Source of the DNA: an uncultured Pyrinomonadaceae bacterium
Lineage (GTDB): Bacteria > Acidobacteriota > Blastocatellia > Pyrinomonadales > Pyrinomonadaceae
Reading direction: 5' to 3'
NCBI GenBank assembly: GCA_965365505.1
Contig: CBDUBY010000001.1
Span: forward strand, 1 to 54,070
DNA: 54,070 bases
A program made the translations under genes and the position numbers. Positions 9,515 to 36,438 of this stretch are shown in pieces. The notes under the pieces are model-generated. The model had not been told where the DNA came from and did not search any database. It worked only from the letters and a program-made list of their open reading frames with translations. Position 1 is the stretch's first letter. Every line of letters starts with the position of its first letter.

Positions 9515-9569
9515 AAAAAATTTTATTTCTCCTTTGATTAAATTACTGCCAAAAAAAGTGCCGTGCAGA

Positions 9570-9966
9570 GTGGAGCAAGTCTATAAGCCGAATTTTGTAT
9601 TCGCCCCGAAAGGCAAACGGTAATCATTCATCTAGGCTCGTCGTTACCGAAAAGCTCAAGCGACCTACCCGGAAACGCTGTTTGAATCGCTTCAAACATA
9701 AGAGCGGGCAGCTCTTAAAATGTCGTTTCCCTATTTGGTCTTGCACCGCGAGGAGTTTACCCAGCCGCGCCTGTTACCAAACGCGCTGACGCGCTCTTAC
9801 CGCGTCGTTTCACCCATCACCTTTCGGCTGGTCTGTTCTCTGTTGCACTTGTCGTCATCCGATTAAAAATCAAATGCCCGGACGTTATCCGGCTCGCCGC
9901 CCTGTTGGTGTTCGGACTTTCCTCTGCCGATTTTTCAATCGAAAGCGATTACCCAACTTGCTCCGC
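9570..9966 (-). ncRNA. rnpB: RNase P RNA, bacterial type A
   Basis: The reverse complement reads GGAGCAAGTTGGGTAATCGC...CGGCAGAGGAAAGTCCGAACACC...ACAGAGAACAG...GGGTGAAACG...GGTAAACTCCTCGCGGTGCAAGACCAAATAGG...CTAGATGAATGATTACCG...ACAAAATTCGGCTTATAGACTTGCTCC. It contains the universal GAGGAAAGTCCG core. P1 forms between GGAGCAAGT (5') and ACTTGCTCC (3'). Ends are accurate to about 5 nt. Confidence 0.93.
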
Positions 9967-10035
9967 TGCAAGGCTCACATATCTTAGCAAAAATTGTTCA
10001 ACATTTACAATTTAGGTTTTGAGTTTGGAAATGAG

Positions 10036-11088
10036 TTAATTGACGATTTCAATCGTATCTCCGGCTTTAATCTGCGGATCAGGCTGCTTGCCGCCTTTTA
10101 TTAAATCCAAATCGAATTCCATCGGCGAGAGCAGTCCGACTTGATTTTTTCGGCGAATAATCGCCTTTTTAATACTGGCTTTTCGCAAACCGCCCGAAGC
10201 TAAAATTGCCTGCGTTAAGGTCAAGCCCGCATGAAAATCCTTCTGTCCGGCTGAGACGACATTGCCGCCGATAAAATAAAACTGCCGATTAGAAGTTGAT
10301 TCACCGTCGCTGCTGCCAGAAGACTTAAATTCGAGAATGTCGCCCGGGAAAATCAAAACGTCTTCGGATTTCGCGTCCATTAAATCTATTTGCTCGGTTT
10401 CCGCATTGGCGCGTTTGATAAAAAGCAAATCGGCTTTCGGCTGGACAATGGCTTCGGCGCGAATCATAAACAGCGGCACGGCTTCGCGCGGCAGATATTT
10501 TTCGCCCGGTTTTTCTACCAGACCGAAAACCGTAATCTGGTGGCTGGCGTGTTCGCGTACTTTGACGGAAATTTGCGGATTTTCATACAGCTTAATTTTC
10601 TCGCGCATCAAATCTTCAATCTCTTCGACCGTCAAACCGCTGACCGCAATCATCTCGCCCGCGAGCGGATAATCAATCGTGCCGTTATTCAAAACCGTGA
10701 AATATGTCGAATCTTTTGAAGGCGCGTTTTGCAGGCTAATGAATAAAACATCGCCGACGCCGACTTTATAAATTTCTGTGGGTGATATGGCGTTTTTGTT
10801 CGCCCGCTTCACGACTTCGAGCGTTTTGCTGGCGACCGAACGGCTCTCAAATTCTTTATTTTCAGCCGAGATGTTATCCGTGTCGGGTTCAGTTTGATTT
10901 TCCGCAATCAAAGGGACTTCGGTTTTTGTTTCGGAATTAACGGATTTGTTTTTTGTTTTCGGGTTTTGAGAGTATCCGAAATTTATTTTTTTAACCGTTT
11001 CCGGTTCTGACTGCGCCGCTGTGCTGCCAACGAATGTAAAGCCGGTCATCAAAATCAAAGCGAATAATTTTACGGGCTGAGTTTTCAT
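10036..11088 (-). CDS. polysaccharide export protein (Wza-like: Poly_export + SLBB domains)
   Basis: Signal peptide MKTQPVKLFALILMTGFTFVGSTAAQ, YKVGVGDVLFISL, PLAGEMIAVSGLTVEEIEDLMREKI, ITVFGLVEKPGEKYLP, and a C-terminal SLBB-like AGDTIEIV. Confidence 0.8.
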   Translation of the reverse strand: MKTQPVKLFALILMTGFTFVGSTAAQSEPETVKKINFGYSQNPKTKNKSVNSETKTEVPLIAENQTEPDTDNISAENKEFESRSVASKTLEVVKRANKNAISPTEIYKVGVGDVLFISLQNAPSKDSTYFTVLNNGTIDYPLAGEMIAVSGLTVEEIEDLMREKIKLYENPQISVKVREHASHQITVFGLVEKPGEKYLPREAVPLFMIRAEAIVQPKADLLFIKRANAETEQIDLMDAKSEDVLIFPGDILEFKSSGSSDGESTSNRQFYFIGGNVVSAGQKDFHAGLTLTQAILASGGLRKASIKKAIIRRKNQVGLLSPMEFDLDLIKGGKQPDPQIKAGDTIEIVN

Positions 11089-32022: not shown

Positions 32023-32480
32023 TGGATTCTCCTATTTCGAATTTAACTTAAAAATTAAGAATTGGATTTTCACGGTATGGTTGATAATCAACCTAGAAAG
32101 CGGCAACTGCCCCAATACCCATTTCAAATTATTAACAATCAATTTCTCCGCAGCAGAGAAATCTCATCCTAATCAATTTGAAGAAAAAACCGGCTGTTCG
32201 TATCATCGGATCAATACTTTTAATAGATGGCAATTGCGCGAGAATTGTATTTTATTCGGCGTCTAAAGTCCATTGTGCCTGACTATTTTTCAAACAGAAA
32301 TCTCCGATTTGAAAAGTCAATTTGCCGCAGCCATAATAGAGCAAAAAATATATTTTCATTTCGTCATTTATCTGCAAACTTTAAAACGAATCGGTTCTTA
32401 TAATTTTTGTAACGTAAGATACCGAAATAAATAATTCACAATCAAGCCTCGAAATGAGGTCTAGGAACAAGGAGAAAACT

Positions 32481-33056
32481 ATGCTAATTGCGTTAGAAGG
32501 CAGTTCGCCGACCATTCGCGGAGAAAACAATCGTAAATACTATGTCTGGGAAGTCTATCAAAACACCAGCCACGCCGGAATATATGTTCCGGGACCGGCG
32601 GCTATTTCCTGGGGACCGAGCGGCATTAACATCAGAAAAATGGCAGATAAAGCGACGACTTATATCAAAGCCAATTCGGGACCGATTTTCTTAGTCGGCT
32701 GGAGTCGCGGCGCGGCGGCGTGTGTGCAGACCGCGCTCGATTTGTATCGTTCGGGTCACGGACAAAATATCGAAGCGATGTTTTTATTCGACGCGGTTGA
32801 CCAGGACGGTTCGACCAACGATTTTTTAAATTTCATTCCGGGCAATGTCAACAACGCATATCACGCGATTGCCACCGACAAAAGCTGGATGGACAGGCAA
32901 ATTTTCCCGACCTGCGCGAAAACCGCCGCGCCAAGCGTTAATCTCGTCCCAAAAACATTTCACGCCACGCACGGCGGAATTGCGGGTGCCGGAGAAACCG
33001 ACGGCGGCTCGAAAGAATGGATGTGGAATCACCTGCGAACGCACAATGTTCTCTAA
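32481..33056 (+). CDS. minimal alpha/beta-hydrolase, DUF2235/Tle1-like (GWSRGA nucleophile elbow)
   Basis: AAGGAG RBS 6 nt before ATG 32481. LVGWSRGAAAC (GxSxG in the GFSRGA-like form), LFDAVDQ (Asp) and FHATHGGIAG (His). Only about 191 aa and no signal peptide. Confidence 0.5.
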   Translation: MLIALEGSSPTIRGENNRKYYVWEVYQNTSHAGIYVPGPAAISWGPSGINIRKMADKATTYIKANSGPIFLVGWSRGAAACVQTALDLYRSGHGQNIEAMFLFDAVDQDGSTNDFLNFIPGNVNNAYHAIATDKSWMDRQIFPTCAKTAAPSVNLVPKTFHATHGGIAGAGETDGGSKEWMWNHLRTHNVL

Positions 33057-33119: not shown

Positions 33120-33566
33120 TTACTCGCCGATGTCTTCGTTCCAAATCTTCGGGTTTTCCCTGATATAATCGCCGAGCATCTTTTTACATTCCGGCGAATC
33201 GAGATTGACAACTTTCACTCCATTTTCTCTCAGCCATTCGATTCCGCCGTCAAAATTTTCGGTCTCGCCGACGATGACTGTGCCGATTTTGAATTGCCTG
33301 ATTAACCCCGAACAATACCAGCACGGCGCGAGCGTCGTCGCCATAATCGTCTGTCGGTAATCGCGCTGCCGCCCGCTTTTGCGAAACGCATCGGTTTCGC
33401 CGTGAATCGAAGGATCGTTTTCCTGCACACGACGGTTGCGACCGCGACCGAGCAAATTTCCCGAAGCGTCAAAAAGAGCCGCGCCGATTGGAATGCCGCC
33501 TTCGGCTAAACCGATTCGTGCTTCTTCAATCGCCACGTCTAACATCTGGTGAAAGTTTTCGTTCAT
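33120..33566 (-). CDS. CDA-fold cytosine deaminase, yeast Fcy1-type
   Basis: HGETDA (H-x-E zinc/catalytic motif), TLAPCWYCSG (PCxxC), and the C-terminus ENPKIWNEDIGE closely matching yeast Fcy1 ...WFEDIGE as I recall it. The ATG overlaps the upstream stop (ATGA at 33563-33566). Confidence 0.8.
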   Translation of the reverse strand: MNENFHQMLDVAIEEARIGLAEGGIPIGAALFDASGNLLGRGRNRRVQENDPSIHGETDAFRKSGRQRDYRQTIMATTLAPCWYCSGLIRQFKIGTVIVGETENFDGGIEWLRENGVKVVNLDSPECKKMLGDYIRENPKIWNEDIGE

Positions 33567-34315
33567 AAATTTTTCAATCTAATGCGAATCAGCAAATCGT
33601 TCAAATCATTTTTAGCGTTCGCCGCATCCGGCAAATCGCTTCGCTGCATTTCCTTTTCCAATTCAGCGACCAGCCGTTCGTATTCTTTCTGGTAAAAATT
33701 CAAATCTGCGCCGGGCAAAATGTCGCGTTCCGCGCCGGATGTTTTGCGCTCAATCAATTCGGGCACGTAAGGCAGATTAAATTTCTCGTTCAGCTTCGGC
33801 AGATTCGCTTCGATTTCGCCCGTTTGCATCAGATTGATGCCGGTCAGAAGCACGCGAAGGATATACAGCAGCGGCTTGACGCGCGGCTGCGGTTCTTTCG
33901 AGAAAAGTTTCCATTCGGTTTTGGCGAACCCGAAATAATGATGCGCGTGATAGCGCGTGATACACCGCTTGCCGATGCTTTTTAACTCGTCGTGTTCCGG
34001 CGTAGTCAGCACAATCAGCGGCGAAAACAGTTGTTCGAGAACATAACCGTTTTTCTTGAGCATCAGCGCGAAAAACTTCCTCGCGTCGTGCGTCACCAAA
34101 TCGAGTTCCAATCCGTCACGAATCTCCTCAACCTGAACCGTCTCGCGCCCGACATCCAACCCGACGACATCAGCCAGCGGCAAAACGTGAACGCCGCGCA
34201 AATCATAATCCGAATCCGCCGACGGAAATCCGTAAAGATGCGCCCCGCTGACAGTCGCAAAAACTAGCGGAAAAGGATGTTCGAAAGCTATTTGTTTGAG
34301 CTTTTCTTCGATCAT
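33563..34315 (-). CDS. Pol-beta-superfamily nucleotidyltransferase, YcgL/PF10127-like (paralogue 1)
   Basis: FPLVFATVSGAHLYGFPSADSDYDLRGVHVLP matches the GSHLYGFxSxxSDxDxRG signature I recall for B. subtilis YcgL-type proteins. Start set at ATG 34315, 1 nt after the upstream TAA. The track start at 34351 would overlap by 35 nt. Confidence 0.7.
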   Translation of the reverse strand: MIEEKLKQIAFEHPFPLVFATVSGAHLYGFPSADSDYDLRGVHVLPLADVVGLDVGRETVQVEEIRDGLELDLVTHDARKFFALMLKKNGYVLEQLFSPLIVLTTPEHDELKSIGKRCITRYHAHHYFGFAKTEWKLFSKEPQPRVKPLLYILRVLLTGINLMQTGEIEANLPKLNEKFNLPYVPELIERKTSGAERDILPGADLNFYQKEYERLVAELEKEMQRSDLPDAANAKNDLNDLLIRIRLKNL

Positions 34316-34316
34316 T

Positions 34317-34778
34317 TTAATCTCTAAGTCTTGAGTTCCAACCGCGTTCAAGCGAAGCTTTAAATTCTTCTGGCGTTTCCAGCGAAAGCCAGTAAAGATA
34401 TGTTTTTCCTCTTTGCTTTGCTTCTTTATCCAATGGTTCTGCTAACAGTGACTCAACTTCTTTGCGAACTTGTTCAATACCTACAACTTCCGCAAAATAC
34501 CAAGGAAGTTCTTCTATACTCACATCCCAATTTTTCAGTGAAAGTCTAATATCTTCGCGCAAATTTCTATTGTATTTAGGTTTCAATTTCCACAATAGCC
34601 CACCTGCCGCTGCTTGATAGGGATATAAATTATCAAGAAAGAAAATTTCAAGAAGCCCTTCAAGAACAATATCAGAGTCCTCTTTTTTCAATCTGAGCAT
34701 TAGATGGCGAACACCTTGCCAAGCATTCTGTCCGCCCACAACTTTTATTAATTCAAGTCTTATTTGTTCTGGTTTCAT
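34317..34778 (-). CDS. hypothetical helical protein (AT-rich insert between the two NTase genes)
   Basis: 153 aa, predicted helical, no recognisable family. Hand-counted lines give about 32-38% G+C, against about 55% for a neighbouring NTase line. Confidence 0.6.
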   Translation of the reverse strand: MKPEQIRLELIKVVGGQNAWQGVRHLMLRLKKEDSDIVLEGLLEIFFLDNLYPYQAAAGGLLWKLKPKYNRNLREDIRLSLKNWDVSIEELPWYFAEVVGIEQVRKEVESLLAEPLDKEAKQRGKTYLYWLSLETPEEFKASLERGWNSRLRD

Positions 34779-34781
34779 TTT

Positions 34782-35717
34782 CTAAACAACTGACCGTCTG
34801 GCTCGAATCAAAAACTCATTCGCCCTTTTGTAATCGGAATTTTCCGGTAAATTCGTTCGGGCGAAGGCTTCGTCAAATTCCCTGTGCAGATTGACGCGCC
34901 ACTCGTTGACTTCGCGCCATTCGAGTTCGGCGTTTTTTATCGCCAGCAGTTTCGGGCGATGTTCGGCGGTGACGCGCACGATTAAATCAGCTTCGCGCAG
35001 AATTTCGATGCCCTGCACGAGCAGTCGTATCAAGTGCATCGCGTGTTTCCATTTAACCGTGCCGGCGGTGCGCAAATCCTGTTCGAGCTTTTTGAACTGC
35101 GACATCACATAGCCGTTGTAAGTTTGATAAACGAGCTTCGACAAAAAGATTTGCCTGATCGAAAGCAGCTCGGCGGCAAGCTCGCTTTGGTATTCGACGA
35201 GCGGCGTGAAAAGACATTCCAAAATATTCGGATTCGCTTTGAGCGCGAGCGTCAGAAACTTTTTCAATTCCCAGTAACATTCTTCCGTGTCTTTGTTCTC
35301 AAGCTGTTCCGGCACGCCGAACAAAGACCAATGCACATCGGCGGGCGGCAGATAAATCCCGCGTAAATCGGTGTCGGAATTCTCATCGTCCAGCCCGAAC
35401 GCCTTTGAACCGACGACGCAGCGGTAAATCACGAAATCATACAAATCGAAGTCTTCGAGCGGCGAAATCAAACCGCTCTGCTCGGTCTGAAATTCCTTGC
35501 GAATCGAAAAACTTTTACGGTTCGCCATCGCGCATCTGCCGTCGGGAAACTCGATTTTGTAGGCATGAAAAGCATCGGCTGGTGTTTCAACGACTTTGCC
35601 GACCGTTCCCTTCGCGTAAAAAGAATTTTCGTTAAAGACTTTTGTTTCGTTGAGCAGAACAATCTGCGTCCCTTTCGGAATTATCAGATTAAAATCCGTG
35701 TCTTTCGCATTTTTCAT
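34782..35717 (-). CDS. Pol-beta-superfamily nucleotidyltransferase, PF10127-like, with extra N-terminal beta-rich domain (paralogue 2)
   Basis: VIYRCVVGSKAFGLDDENSDTDLRGIYLPPADV gives the same G[SG]...D-x-D-x-RG signature. About 95 additional N-terminal residues (IIPKGTQIVLL...GTVGKVVETP...YKIEFPDGR). Confidence 0.7.
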   Translation of the reverse strand: MKNAKDTDFNLIIPKGTQIVLLNETKVFNENSFYAKGTVGKVVETPADAFHAYKIEFPDGRCAMANRKSFSIRKEFQTEQSGLISPLEDFDLYDFVIYRCVVGSKAFGLDDENSDTDLRGIYLPPADVHWSLFGVPEQLENKDTEECYWELKKFLTLALKANPNILECLFTPLVEYQSELAAELLSIRQIFLSKLVYQTYNGYVMSQFKKLEQDLRTAGTVKWKHAMHLIRLLVQGIEILREADLIVRVTAEHRPKLLAIKNAELEWREVNEWRVNLHREFDEAFARTNLPENSDYKRANEFLIRARRSVV

Positions 35718-35822
35718 TCATAAGATTTTAATAATTAAACCTCGCTTTATACTAATGTAACGAGGCGCGGAAACACCTTTACGCAATAATTTGGAATGTG
35801 AACGATTTGTTAAATTTTCTGC

Positions 35823-35852
35823 TTGACACTAAAAATTTCCTTTTGCTATATT
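35823..35852 (+). promoter_or_regulatory. sigma-70-type promoter for the repeat RNA
   Basis: TTGACA (35823-35828), 18-nt spacer, TATATT (35847-35852). The predicted start near 35859 coincides with the 5' end of the outer stem. Confidence 0.6.
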
Positions 35853-35873
35853 AATTTTAGTTCGTGGTTGTTT

Positions 35874-35904
35874 GTTAGTTAGTTACTTAGTTAGTTAGTT
35901 AGTT
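35874..35904 (+). repeat. tetranucleotide tract 1: (GTTA)3 CTTA (GTTA)3 GTT
   Basis: Read directly from the sequence. Confidence 0.95.
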
Positions 35905-35928
35905 TGTAACTATTTCGGTAGTTACTTT

Positions 35929-35955
35929 GTTAGTTAGTTAGTTAGTTAGTTAGTT
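35929..35955 (+). repeat. tetranucleotide tract 2: (GTTA)6 GTT
   Basis: Read directly from the sequence. Confidence 0.95.
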
Positions 35956-35976
35956 CATTTGCAACCACAACTAAAA

Positions 35977-36020
35977 AGCCCGTTTAGCCGTCAAAAGCTA
36001 AACGGGCTTTTTCTTTTTTT
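35977..36020 (+). terminator. strong intrinsic terminator
   Basis: AGCCCGTTTAGC-cgtcaaaa-GCTAAACGGGCT followed by TTTTCTTTTTTT. Confidence 0.9.
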
Positions 36021-36078
36021 CCGGTAATTTACGAATTAAAACAACGGTTGTGTTAATTTATTGTAAGGAGAAACCTTT

Positions 36079-36438
36079 ATGTCACAAGATTTTCAGCCCG
36101 GCGATTTTTTAATTTTTCAGATTGAAAGCGGTTACGGCTTGCTGCGTATTCTGGCAATTGACCAAACCGAAACGGGAACAATCTGGCATCTGGCAGCTTA
36201 TAATGAAATGTTTCTCGATATTGAGATGGCTGACGCGGCACTTGAAAATTATCACACATTAACGAAAAGCTATCAGCATCTGGCACTGACGACGCGGGCT
36301 TTTGAAAGCACACAGGTTGCGCGAATGAAAAACGAGCCGTTGTCTGATGACGAACTCGAAAACGTCGCGCATTGGCGTGTCAATGAACAGAGCGAAGTTT
36401 CCGATTTGTCGGTCAGGTTGCTGCTCGGATTGCGATGA
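36079..36438 (+). CDS. hypothetical small acidic protein
   Basis: AAGGAG RBS at 36065-36070, 8 nt before the ATG. 119 aa, with about 19 D/E against about 8 K/R by hand count. Beta-rich N-terminus (GDFLIFQIESGYGLLRILAID). No family recognised. Confidence 0.6.
   Translation: MSQDFQPGDFLIFQIESGYGLLRILAIDQTETGTIWHLAAYNEMFLDIEMADAALENYHTLTKSYQHLALTTRAFESTQVARMKNEPLSDDELENVAHWRVNEQSEVSDLSVRLLLGLR

Follow-up and report, generated by a model that had tools for sequence, protein, structure and literature searches.

The four tightly packed minus-strand open reading frames (ORFs) at 33120..35717 of the window, by which we mean the whole 54,070-nucleotide stretch of Pyrinomonadaceae DNA analysed here, probably form a composite locus: an orphan pair of RlaP-family nucleotidyltransferases and incidental co-transcribed neighbours, with three independent histories, brought together in one transcription unit. 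The nucleotidyltransferases, RlaP-L and RlaP-S, would be a two-gene unit that in many bacteria lies between Hen1 and Pnkp of a ribotoxin-damage RNA-repair operon and that has been orphaned here; ORF2 would have been inserted at the L-S junction in the sub-lineage of the window; and the deaminase ORF4 would be an older resident of a deaminase-p200-thiolase-3HCDH block. The ATGA coupling of deaminase and RlaP-S would then reflect operon compaction or co-transcription rather than a shared mechanism. An earlier note on this DNA had thought it plausible that the four genes make up a single module dedicated to conflict or to the modification of bases or nucleotides, a reading not supported by comparison with related loci, where the deaminase persists without the pair and ORF2 homologues are not RlaP-associated.

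In the order of transcription, the minus-strand ORFs are RlaP-L (ORF1; 34782..35717, 311 aa), a long RlaP-family Pol-beta nucleotidyltransferase; ORF2 (34317..34778, 153 aa), an all-alpha protein unassigned in function; RlaP-S (ORF3; 33563..34315, 250 aa counted from ATG 34315), a short RlaP-family nucleotidyltransferase; and ORF4 (33120..33566, 148 aa), an Fcy1-type cytosine deaminase of the CDA fold. Reading the sequence confirmed the 3-nt, 1-nt and ATGA-overlap junctions described previously: TAG 34784-34782 is followed by aaa and ATG 34778 between ORF1 and ORF2, TAA 34319-34317 by a single a and ATG 34315 between ORF2 and ORF3, and the ATGA at 33566-33563 makes the deaminase start overlap the RlaP-S stop. 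The mechanical ORF list runs ORF3 to TTG 34351; the start at ATG 34315 yields 250 aa, which fits the orthologues (250-252 aa). Because each of the four ORFs has many homologues at 60-88% identity, we regard them as genuine genes and not chance ORFs.

Pfam searches returned the families that had been expected, PF10127 twice and PF00383 once. PF10127 was matched by RlaP-L over residues 96-305 (6e-43, 147.7 bits) and by RlaP-S (6e-54, 183.8 bits), both against a cut-off of 23 bits, and PF00383 by ORF4 (5e-16). The window nucleotidyltransferases also matched PHROG nucleotidyltransferase families 388 and 14344, and neither had a PDB match by sequence search, in which the PfRlaP structure was likewise not found. 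The additional beta-rich N-terminal domain reported for ORF1 proved to be real: it is a conserved SH3-like beta-barrel at about residues 10-74 (window 35496-35690), followed by a disordered linker (residues 75-89) and by the PF10127 nucleotidyltransferase and helical domain (residues 96-305, window 34803-35432). The RlaP-L model (pLDDT 83.8 overall, >90 over the helical domain) drew Foldseek matches to SH3 domains and to the two-domain KNTase/ANT(4')/HalB nucleotidyltransferase architecture, and it also resembles AAD(9), AadA and LinB. The SH3-like domain would serve as an RNA- or partner-binding module. The catalytic GS...DxD motif of RlaP-L (G103-S104, D115/D117; third carboxylate unmapped) is invariant in 83/83 orthologues, and the SG...SDYD (SG...DxD) motif of RlaP-S is invariant across 52 orthologues; judged by these motifs, the catalytic carboxylates are retained in both window paralogues.

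The two paralogues are strongly diverged, as had been noticed at the outset, and share 24% identity. RlaP-L adjoins RlaP-S in 21/21 well-flanked metagenome loci, and L precedes S in 49 of 51 loci. Between the distance matrices of L and S the correlation is r=0.73, a value that 0/500 permutations reached, and mean divergence is the same for both (L 0.60, S 0.60). By gene order and covariation, RlaP-L and RlaP-S are a conserved, co-evolving two-gene unit, and we infer that they would act jointly, either as a heteromer or sequentially. Members of the RlaP family add one or two NMPs to RNA 3'-OH ends, as demonstrated for PfRlaP and PaRlaP, and those characterised label RNA and not protein or DNA (PMC12776372); by analogy with these relatives, NMP addition to RNA 3' ends is the predicted activity of the window RlaPs.

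Three Deinococcus plasmids carry a Hen1-L-S-(hyp)-Pnkp operon, to whose long RlaP orthologues RlaP-L is 53% identical over its full length; the short RlaP of Deinococcus shares 54% identity with RlaP-S. Hen1 and/or Pnkp occur in 29/80 metagenome loci, which are spread among many of the deep branches in the L tree. The pair is orphaned from Hen1/Pnkp in 13 of the 21 well-flanked loci. RlaP family membership (PMC12776372), together with orthologous L/S pairs inside Hen1-L-S-Pnkp operons, makes the nucleotidyltransferases attributable to a named system, where the earlier note could assign the locus to no named defence, toxin-antitoxin or RNA-repair system. Within the 54 kb of the window, tblastn (Hen1 and Pnkp queries from Deinococcus) detected no Hen1, Pnkp or Thg1, and a domain scan of the 20 other large window ORFs revealed no RNA-repair domain, only an ATP-dependent DNA ligase. 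At least over these 54 kb, then, the window pair is orphaned from its Pnkp/Hen1 partners, although the genome may encode Pnkp, Hen1 or RtcB elsewhere.

ORF2 had been called helical from its letters, and its AF2 model (pLDDT 95.9) agrees, being all-alpha with nine helices in an ARM/HEAT-like arrangement. It had no match in Pfam, NCBIfam, PADLOC or PHROGs, and Foldseek comparison of the model with the PDB gave nothing at E<0.1, the likeness being to alpha repeats in general. Its close homologues number 49, clustering at 50% identity gives 289 clusters, a Pfam scan of members fused to extra regions found no informative domains in them, and four distant loci were recovered when genome contigs were scanned with ORF2. 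These homologues are either solitary or lie in small-ORF arrays alongside SUKH, Imm7 or DUF6869 genes (3-4 of 6 contexts), and RlaP is absent there. By gene neighbourhood, the homologue context resembles polymorphic-toxin immunity islands; ORF2 matched no Imm family, and no toxin gene adjoins it in the window or in the inspected loci. Elsewhere the L-S junction often holds unrelated genes (YidC, peptidase C69, a TPR protein, DUF6717 and membrane proteins), while the L-ORF2 arrangement is common only to the window and its close relative L097. Since unrelated genes occupy this junction in other loci and ORF2 homologues occur elsewhere without RlaP, ORF2 is, on its distribution, a roaming alpha-repeat gene whose place between RlaP-L and RlaP-S is due to lineage-specific insertion.

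The assignment of ORF4 to the Fcy1 type rather than to TadA was upheld. ORF4 and yeast Fcy1 (1UAQ) can be aligned from end to end (phmmer E 7e-31, residues 8-148 against yCD 14-158), against a TadA match of only 5e-10, and the ORF4 C-terminus forms the WxEDIGE lid found in Fcy1. The HGE and PCWYC motifs are invariant in 8 orthologues, the equivalents of yCD N51, F114, W152 and D155 are aligned and conserved, and several sources name its homologues (78-87% identity) cytosine deaminase. The C-terminal lid of yCD has a structural role that bears on substrate type, and the retention in ORF4 of both lid and free-base-binding residues disfavours a polynucleotide or nucleotide substrate. ORF4 is therefore predicted to be an Fcy1-type housekeeping deaminase that converts free cytosine to uracil in pyrimidine salvage. 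The label 'MafB19-like toxin deaminase' was rejected: the Pfam match behind it overlaps that to PF00383, and every other match falls about 20 orders of magnitude or more short of the one to Fcy1.

Conservation of the neighbourhood, which the earlier note had suggested testing for the nucleotidyltransferases and the deaminase together, held for the former and failed for the latter, which adjoins the pair in no more than a single shallow clade of Pyrinomonadaceae (the window, L011, L012, L013 and L017). The deaminase is missing from sister loci L021 and L102, and a deaminase stands beside the pair in 0/21 well-flanked loci, all of them outside that clade. Conversely, the deaminase lies in the same synteny block (deaminase-p200-thiolase-3HCDH in Pyrinomonadaceae) in L100 and L101, where the RlaP pair is absent, and in L099, where RlaP has decayed to an RlaP-S remnant beside IS1595; it is fully intact in these three loci, which constitute the deaminase-side sampling. 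On this sampling the deaminase is independent of the pair, being intact in loci where the pair is missing or decayed and linked to it in one clade only; its persistence there is among the outcomes that the earlier note had named as refuting its reading. In the five clade loci, however, it is co-directional with and directly adjoins an RlaP gene in three gene orders (L-S-D, L-S-X-D and D-L-Y-S), and its start overlaps the RlaP-S stop in three of them (the window, L013 and L017), an adjacency that somewhat exceeds the prediction from passive synteny. It is on this contiguity and overlap that a real functional module of RlaP-L, RlaP-S and deaminase in the clade could be argued, whether RNA-end repair or tailing coupled to the processing of released or added cytosine, or action of the nucleotidyltransferases on a small molecule that contains cytosine and is subsequently converted by the deaminase. 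We consider such a module unlikely given the intact deaminases of L099-L101, the confinement of the association to the shallow clade, the Fcy1 lid and free-base-binding residues, which speak against a polynucleotide or nucleotide substrate, and the readiness with which the L-S neighbourhood takes unrelated genes. That the RlaP pair, having lost Pnkp/Hen1, has re-partnered with the deaminase and with variable small cargo (ORF2) in this one clade seems to us improbable; if true, it would constitute an undescribed RNA-end/nucleobase module, for example one of damaged-RNA tailing and cytosine turnover or, alternatively, one in which a metabolite or toxin bearing cytosine is nucleotidylated and deaminated.

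The surroundings of the operon bear on readings that invoke conflict. The divergent intergenic region (35718..36078) presumably holds the operon promoter; promoter-like sites were located there on both strands (weak, minus strand, 35813-35786; strong, plus strand, 35823-35852), together with two plus-strand hairpins, the first of (UUAG)n and the next resembling a terminator; the fold score obtained was z=-7.7. Beyond it lies the divergently transcribed p119 (36079..36438, plus strand, 119 aa), a conserved hypothetical protein with no family match in Pfam, PADLOC, NCBIfam or PHROGs. Copies 50-83% identical to p119 stand beside the module in L011, L012, L013, L017 and L097 and also in L100; because it persists in this RlaP-less locus, the idea of p119 as part of the RlaP module was rejected, and p119 is probably a syntenic neighbour outside RlaP function. 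The flanks are housekeeping chromosome in conserved synteny with no defence island, and the six local proteins yielded no defence, toxin-antitoxin or named-system match in PADLOC, NCBIfam or PHROGs. An anti-phage or toxin-antitoxin locus, with an MNT/AbiEii-like or signal-producing nucleotidyltransferase (Hailong HalB, CBASS), ORF2 as effector or immunity protein and a nucleotide-depleting deaminase, would gain some colour from the presence of HalB (E 1e-4) among the best PDB matches of the ORF1 model, from the immunity-island-like arrays of ORF2 relatives and from a weak similarity between ORF4 and the deaminase domain that anti-phage dCTP deaminases carry. The HalB likeness, however, is that of a generic KNTase-like architecture (TM 0.3-0.5), the nucleotidyltransferases belong to PF10127 and not to MNT or AbiEii, and their orthologues sit with Hen1 and Pnkp. 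ORF2 had no HEPN or AbiEi profile match, and its translation showed no Rx4-6H motif by eye, its sole His lying at a position that is not conserved in the family alignment. The PADLOC check that the earlier note had suggested for a defence system matched no model: ORF1, ORF2, ORF3, p119 and p200 gave nothing, and ORF4 gave a 15.7-bit local match to a dCTPase deaminase domain, the dCTP deaminase matches falling well short of their cut-off (15.7 bits; 13 against 400). Given these results and the housekeeping flanks, a defence or toxin-antitoxin role is very improbable. We give scarcely any credence to an antibiotic resistance cassette, in which ANT/Lnu-like nucleotidyltransferases would be joined by a deaminase detoxifying a cytosine-nucleoside antibiotic: the ORF1 model does resemble ANT(4')/KNTase, AAD(9), AadA and LinB by Foldseek, but profiles place both nucleotidyltransferases firmly in PF10127 and not in ANT families, characterised RlaPs act on RNA (PMC12776372), the genes that accompany the family at large encode the RNA-repair enzymes Hen1 and Pnkp, and the deaminase is of the Fcy1 and not the blasticidin-S-deaminase type.

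Under the preferred reading, an orphan RlaP pair with incidental neighbours, the conflict module that had been flagged mostly dissolves, sparing effort on a false lead, and the locus illustrates that tight translational coupling alone does not demonstrate shared function. For RNA-repair specialists, the window offers a member of a subfamily, both large and widespread, whose two diverged RlaPs, catalytically intact by motif and one of them with an SH3-like domain, travel as a co-evolving pair, in many loci between Hen1 and Pnkp. Successive nucleotide addition by L and S, or an L/S heteromer, would if shown extend the model in which nucleotides removed by ribotoxins are restored.

Compared with known systems, the window nucleotidyltransferases share with characterised RlaPs (PF10127) the GS...DxD motif, a nucleotidyltransferase domain with a C-terminal helical domain, and orthologues in RNA-repair operons. 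Characterised RlaPs, however, have so far been only single enzymes, encoded by single genes in RtcB-RtcA operons (PMC12776372), whereas the window holds two 24%-identical paralogues as a pair, its long form has the extra SH3-like N-domain, and the family-wide partner of L/S is Pnkp/Hen1 and not RtcB, the window itself being without any ligase partner. With bacterial Pnkp/Hen1 repair, the link is through L/S orthologues (53-62% identity) that Hen1 and Pnkp flank on the Deinococcus plasmids and at many of the metagenome loci, and the difference is that neither Pnkp nor Hen1 is present in the 54-kb window. The split CC- and A-adding tRNA nucleotidyltransferases, for example those of Aquifex and Deinococcus, offer an analogy only, as two diverged, paralogous Pol-beta nucleotidyltransferases possibly sharing short template-independent RNA 3' addition; they belong to a different family (class II CCA), and a division of labour between RlaP-L and RlaP-S would be conjectured from that analogy. 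The polymorphic-toxin immunity arrays (SUKH/SMI1_KNR4, Imm7) recall the ORF2 homologues found among small co-directional ORFs with SUKH and Imm7 genes in a cyanobacterium, a Bacteroidota-like contig and a 4.2-Mb genome, but ORF2 belongs to no described immunity family and has no adjacent toxin, and one homologue stands by itself in unrelated surroundings. Finally, ORF4 keeps the zinc ligands, catalytic Glu, substrate-contact residues and WxEDIGE lid of yeast Fcy1 (yCD, PDB 1UAQ/1P6O), and differs from it in being bacterial, in its activity being predicted, and in being co-transcribed, in one clade, with RNA-repair nucleotidyltransferases.

The four minus-strand ORFs described in an earlier note on this DNA are all present, namely RlaP-L (ORF1, long, 34782-35717), ORF2 (34317-34778), RlaP-S (ORF3, short, 33563-34315) and a deaminase (ORF4, 33120-33566). 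Sequence reading bore out their three junctions: TAG(34784-34782)-aaa-ATG(34778) between ORF1 and ORF2, TAA(34319-34317)-a-ATG(34315) between ORF2 and ORF3, and an ATGA overlap at 33566-33563 between ORF3 and ORF4. The start of ORF3 is likely ATG 34315, because the resulting 250 aa fits the orthologue lengths of 250-252 aa. Pfam gave the anticipated profile matches, with PF10127 in both ORF1 (residues 96-305, 6e-43) and ORF3 (6e-54) and PF00383 in ORF4 (5e-16), and no match for ORF2; PADLOC, NCBIfam and PHROGs returned no further defence or named-system match. The two PF10127 proteins share 24% identity. The surrounding window is housekeeping chromosome (PtsI, aminoacyl-tRNA synthetases, UbiD, 3HCDH, thiolase, ProDH, ProRS, UvrC) that also carries an ATP-dependent DNA ligase and RNase P RNA (bacterial class A, 9568-9964, minus strand, 275.7 bits), and no Hen1, Pnkp or Thg1 gene was found within its 54 kb.

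We consider that the locus is probably an RlaP-L/S pair for RNA-end repair, here orphaned, that has taken up a lineage-specific insert and is transcribed together with a cytosine-salvage deaminase resident at this site. ORF4 matches yeast Fcy1 from end to end (E 7e-31, versus only 5e-10 for TadA) and keeps the zinc ligands, the catalytic Glu, the N51, F114, W152 and D155 equivalents and the C-terminal WxEDIGE lid, so that it is most likely a free-cytosine deaminase, as judged from its sequence. In searches from RlaP-L, the deaminase adjoined RlaP genes in the window and in four comparison loci (L011, L012, L013 and L017), in three kinds of gene order (L-S-D, L-S-X-D and D-L-Y-S). Because this adjacency persists through three rearrangements, a real functional trio of RlaP-L, RlaP-S and deaminase in this clade keeps some plausibility, but we regard it as unlikely, the deaminase also persisting independently of RlaP. 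The deaminase-bearing loci form one shallow clade on the RlaP-L tree, the sister loci L021 and L102 (the latter a Pyrinomonadaceae MAG, 65% identity) are without deaminase, and Hen1/Pnkp contexts are dispersed over its deep branches.

Deaminase homologues (78-87% identity) were all acidobacterial, and in the three loci surveyed from the deaminase side the gene was fully intact (3/3). L100 reads ProRS-ProDH-p119-CNNM-(remnant of a 241-aa gene)-deaminase-p200-thiolase and L101 reads deaminase-p200-thiolase-3HCDH, both lacking RlaP, while in L099 all that is left of the pair is the C-terminal half of RlaP-S beside an IS1595 transposase, followed by deaminase and thiolase. Since the deaminase is intact where RlaP is absent or decayed, it is, across these three loci, the stable resident of the synteny block, and the RlaP pair is accessory and repeatedly lost. 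Thus the earlier proposal of a module stands only in part: the RlaP pair was upheld, whereas the deaminase as its dedicated partner was not, being intact in the same block without the pair (L100, L101), an outcome that the earlier note had itself listed as counting against the module. The 'lipase-like' 200-aa p200 (32454-33056, plus strand), which carries the motif GWSRG and weakly matches a thioesterase (E 0.009), also neighbours the deaminase, in opposite orientation, in L012, L100 and L101.

ORF2 is read as an incidental insert. Its close homologues number only 49, a profile search gave 289 clusters at 50% identity, and the L-ORF2 arrangement recurred only in the close relative L097. Its confident model (pLDDT 95.9) is a 9-helix alpha-repeat with no significant structural match in the PDB. 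Homologues from Leptolyngbya, a Segetibacter-like contig and a 4.2-Mb genome belong to small-ORF arrays, together with SMI1_KNR4/SUKH, Imm7 and DUF6869 genes, and one is solitary, after an ABC transporter; a distant homologue occurs in Pseudoalteromonas luteoviolacea (L002, 1-16291), in an array where about 25 small ORFs run in the same direction over 16 kb. From gene context an immunity-type role for ORF2 is possible. The L002 ORFs (93-339 aa) almost all lack a Pfam match, and the array resembles an extensive island of immunity or orphan genes. Elsewhere the L-S junction holds unrelated genes, encoding YidC, peptidase C69, a TPR/peptidase-MA protein, DUF6717, and 129-aa and 241-aa membrane proteins. 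The gap is a recurrent insertion site (window, L011, L017, L025, L028, L042, L043, L050, L053, L055, L081), its contents including YidC in three loci and one 4.8-kb block.

Upstream of the operon, 35823-36020 (plus strand) contains a near-consensus sigma-70-like promoter (TTGACA-18-TATATT with TG) before two (UUAG)n tracts, which pair mutually by U-A and G.U around a small GUAACUA/UAGUUAC hairpin and are followed by a strong terminator-like hairpin (35973-36012) with a U-run. Only the plus-strand RNA can form this fold (-51 kcal/mol, z=-7.7), which matched no Rfam family at threshold; (TTAG)4 was matched 9 times when up to 1 mismatch was allowed, with 0 matches expected. The region may encode a small RNA or form a leader, and it lies upstream of p119, a 119-aa conserved hypothetical protein (36079-36438, plus strand) with no family match, divergent from ORF1 and syntenic in all close relatives including RlaP-less L100. 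A similar (CTAA)n tract pair lies just downstream of RlaP-L, not upstream, in the close relative L017 (3610-3676) and is absent from L011, L012, L013, L097 and L100, which suggests a mobile or MITE-like element.

RlaP-L and RlaP-S are one unit. A metagenome scan with the RlaP-L alignment, with ORF calling and BLAST labelling, yielded 80 loci (55-91% identity), 29 of them with Hen1 and/or Pnkp. RlaP-S was near RlaP-L in all 21 well-flanked loci (at least 1.6 kb upstream and at least 3.5 kb downstream), in one of which ORF overlap had hidden it in the labelling table; Hen1 and Pnkp flanked the pair in 8/21, the pair stood alone in varied contexts in 13/21, and a deaminase occurred in 0/21. Where both genes were full-length (51 loci), the order was L then S in 49 and adjacency was tight in about 35; mean pairwise identity was 0.60 for each protein, and the L and S distance matrices correlated at r=0.73, a value reached by 0/500 label permutations. 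Because L and S are co-inherited, they may act jointly, as a heteromer or by successive additions.

Known systems offer close counterparts. In tblastn against plasmids, full-length ORF1 orthologues, N-domain included (53% identity), were found on three Deinococcus megaplasmids, each with an operon Hen1 - RlaP-long - RlaP-short - (hypothetical) - Pnkp; ORF3 is 54% identical to the Deinococcus short RlaP. The ORF1 AF2 model (pLDDT 83.8) has an SH3-like barrel (~residues 10-74), a disordered linker, and an NTase plus helical domain resembling KNTase/ANT(4')/HalB, and conserved N-domain residues recur in the Deinococcus orthologues. The operon on a Deinococcus ficus plasmid (L015) has a translationally coupled gene between RlaP-S and Pnkp (9706-10419), whose uncharacterised 237-aa product has no Pfam match; the D. 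gobiensis operon lacks this gene. On a Deinococcus taeanensis plasmid (L014, 4444-5699) the Hen1-L-S operon is closely preceded by genes for a Thg1-family 3'-5' polymerase and an AAA ATPase, and a Thg1 homologue adjoins the pair in L048, which hints at a wider nucleotide-restoration toolkit. [quoted passage not shown] Two Pseudomonas RlaPs add 1 or 2 NMPs onto an RNA 3'-OH, require Mn2+, have little preference among NTPs, are inactive on DNA and protein, and favour broken-tRNA mimics (2025 preprint, PMC12776372). With both NTases placed in this biochemically studied family, the earlier statement that these genes were not assignable to a named RNA-repair family no longer holds.
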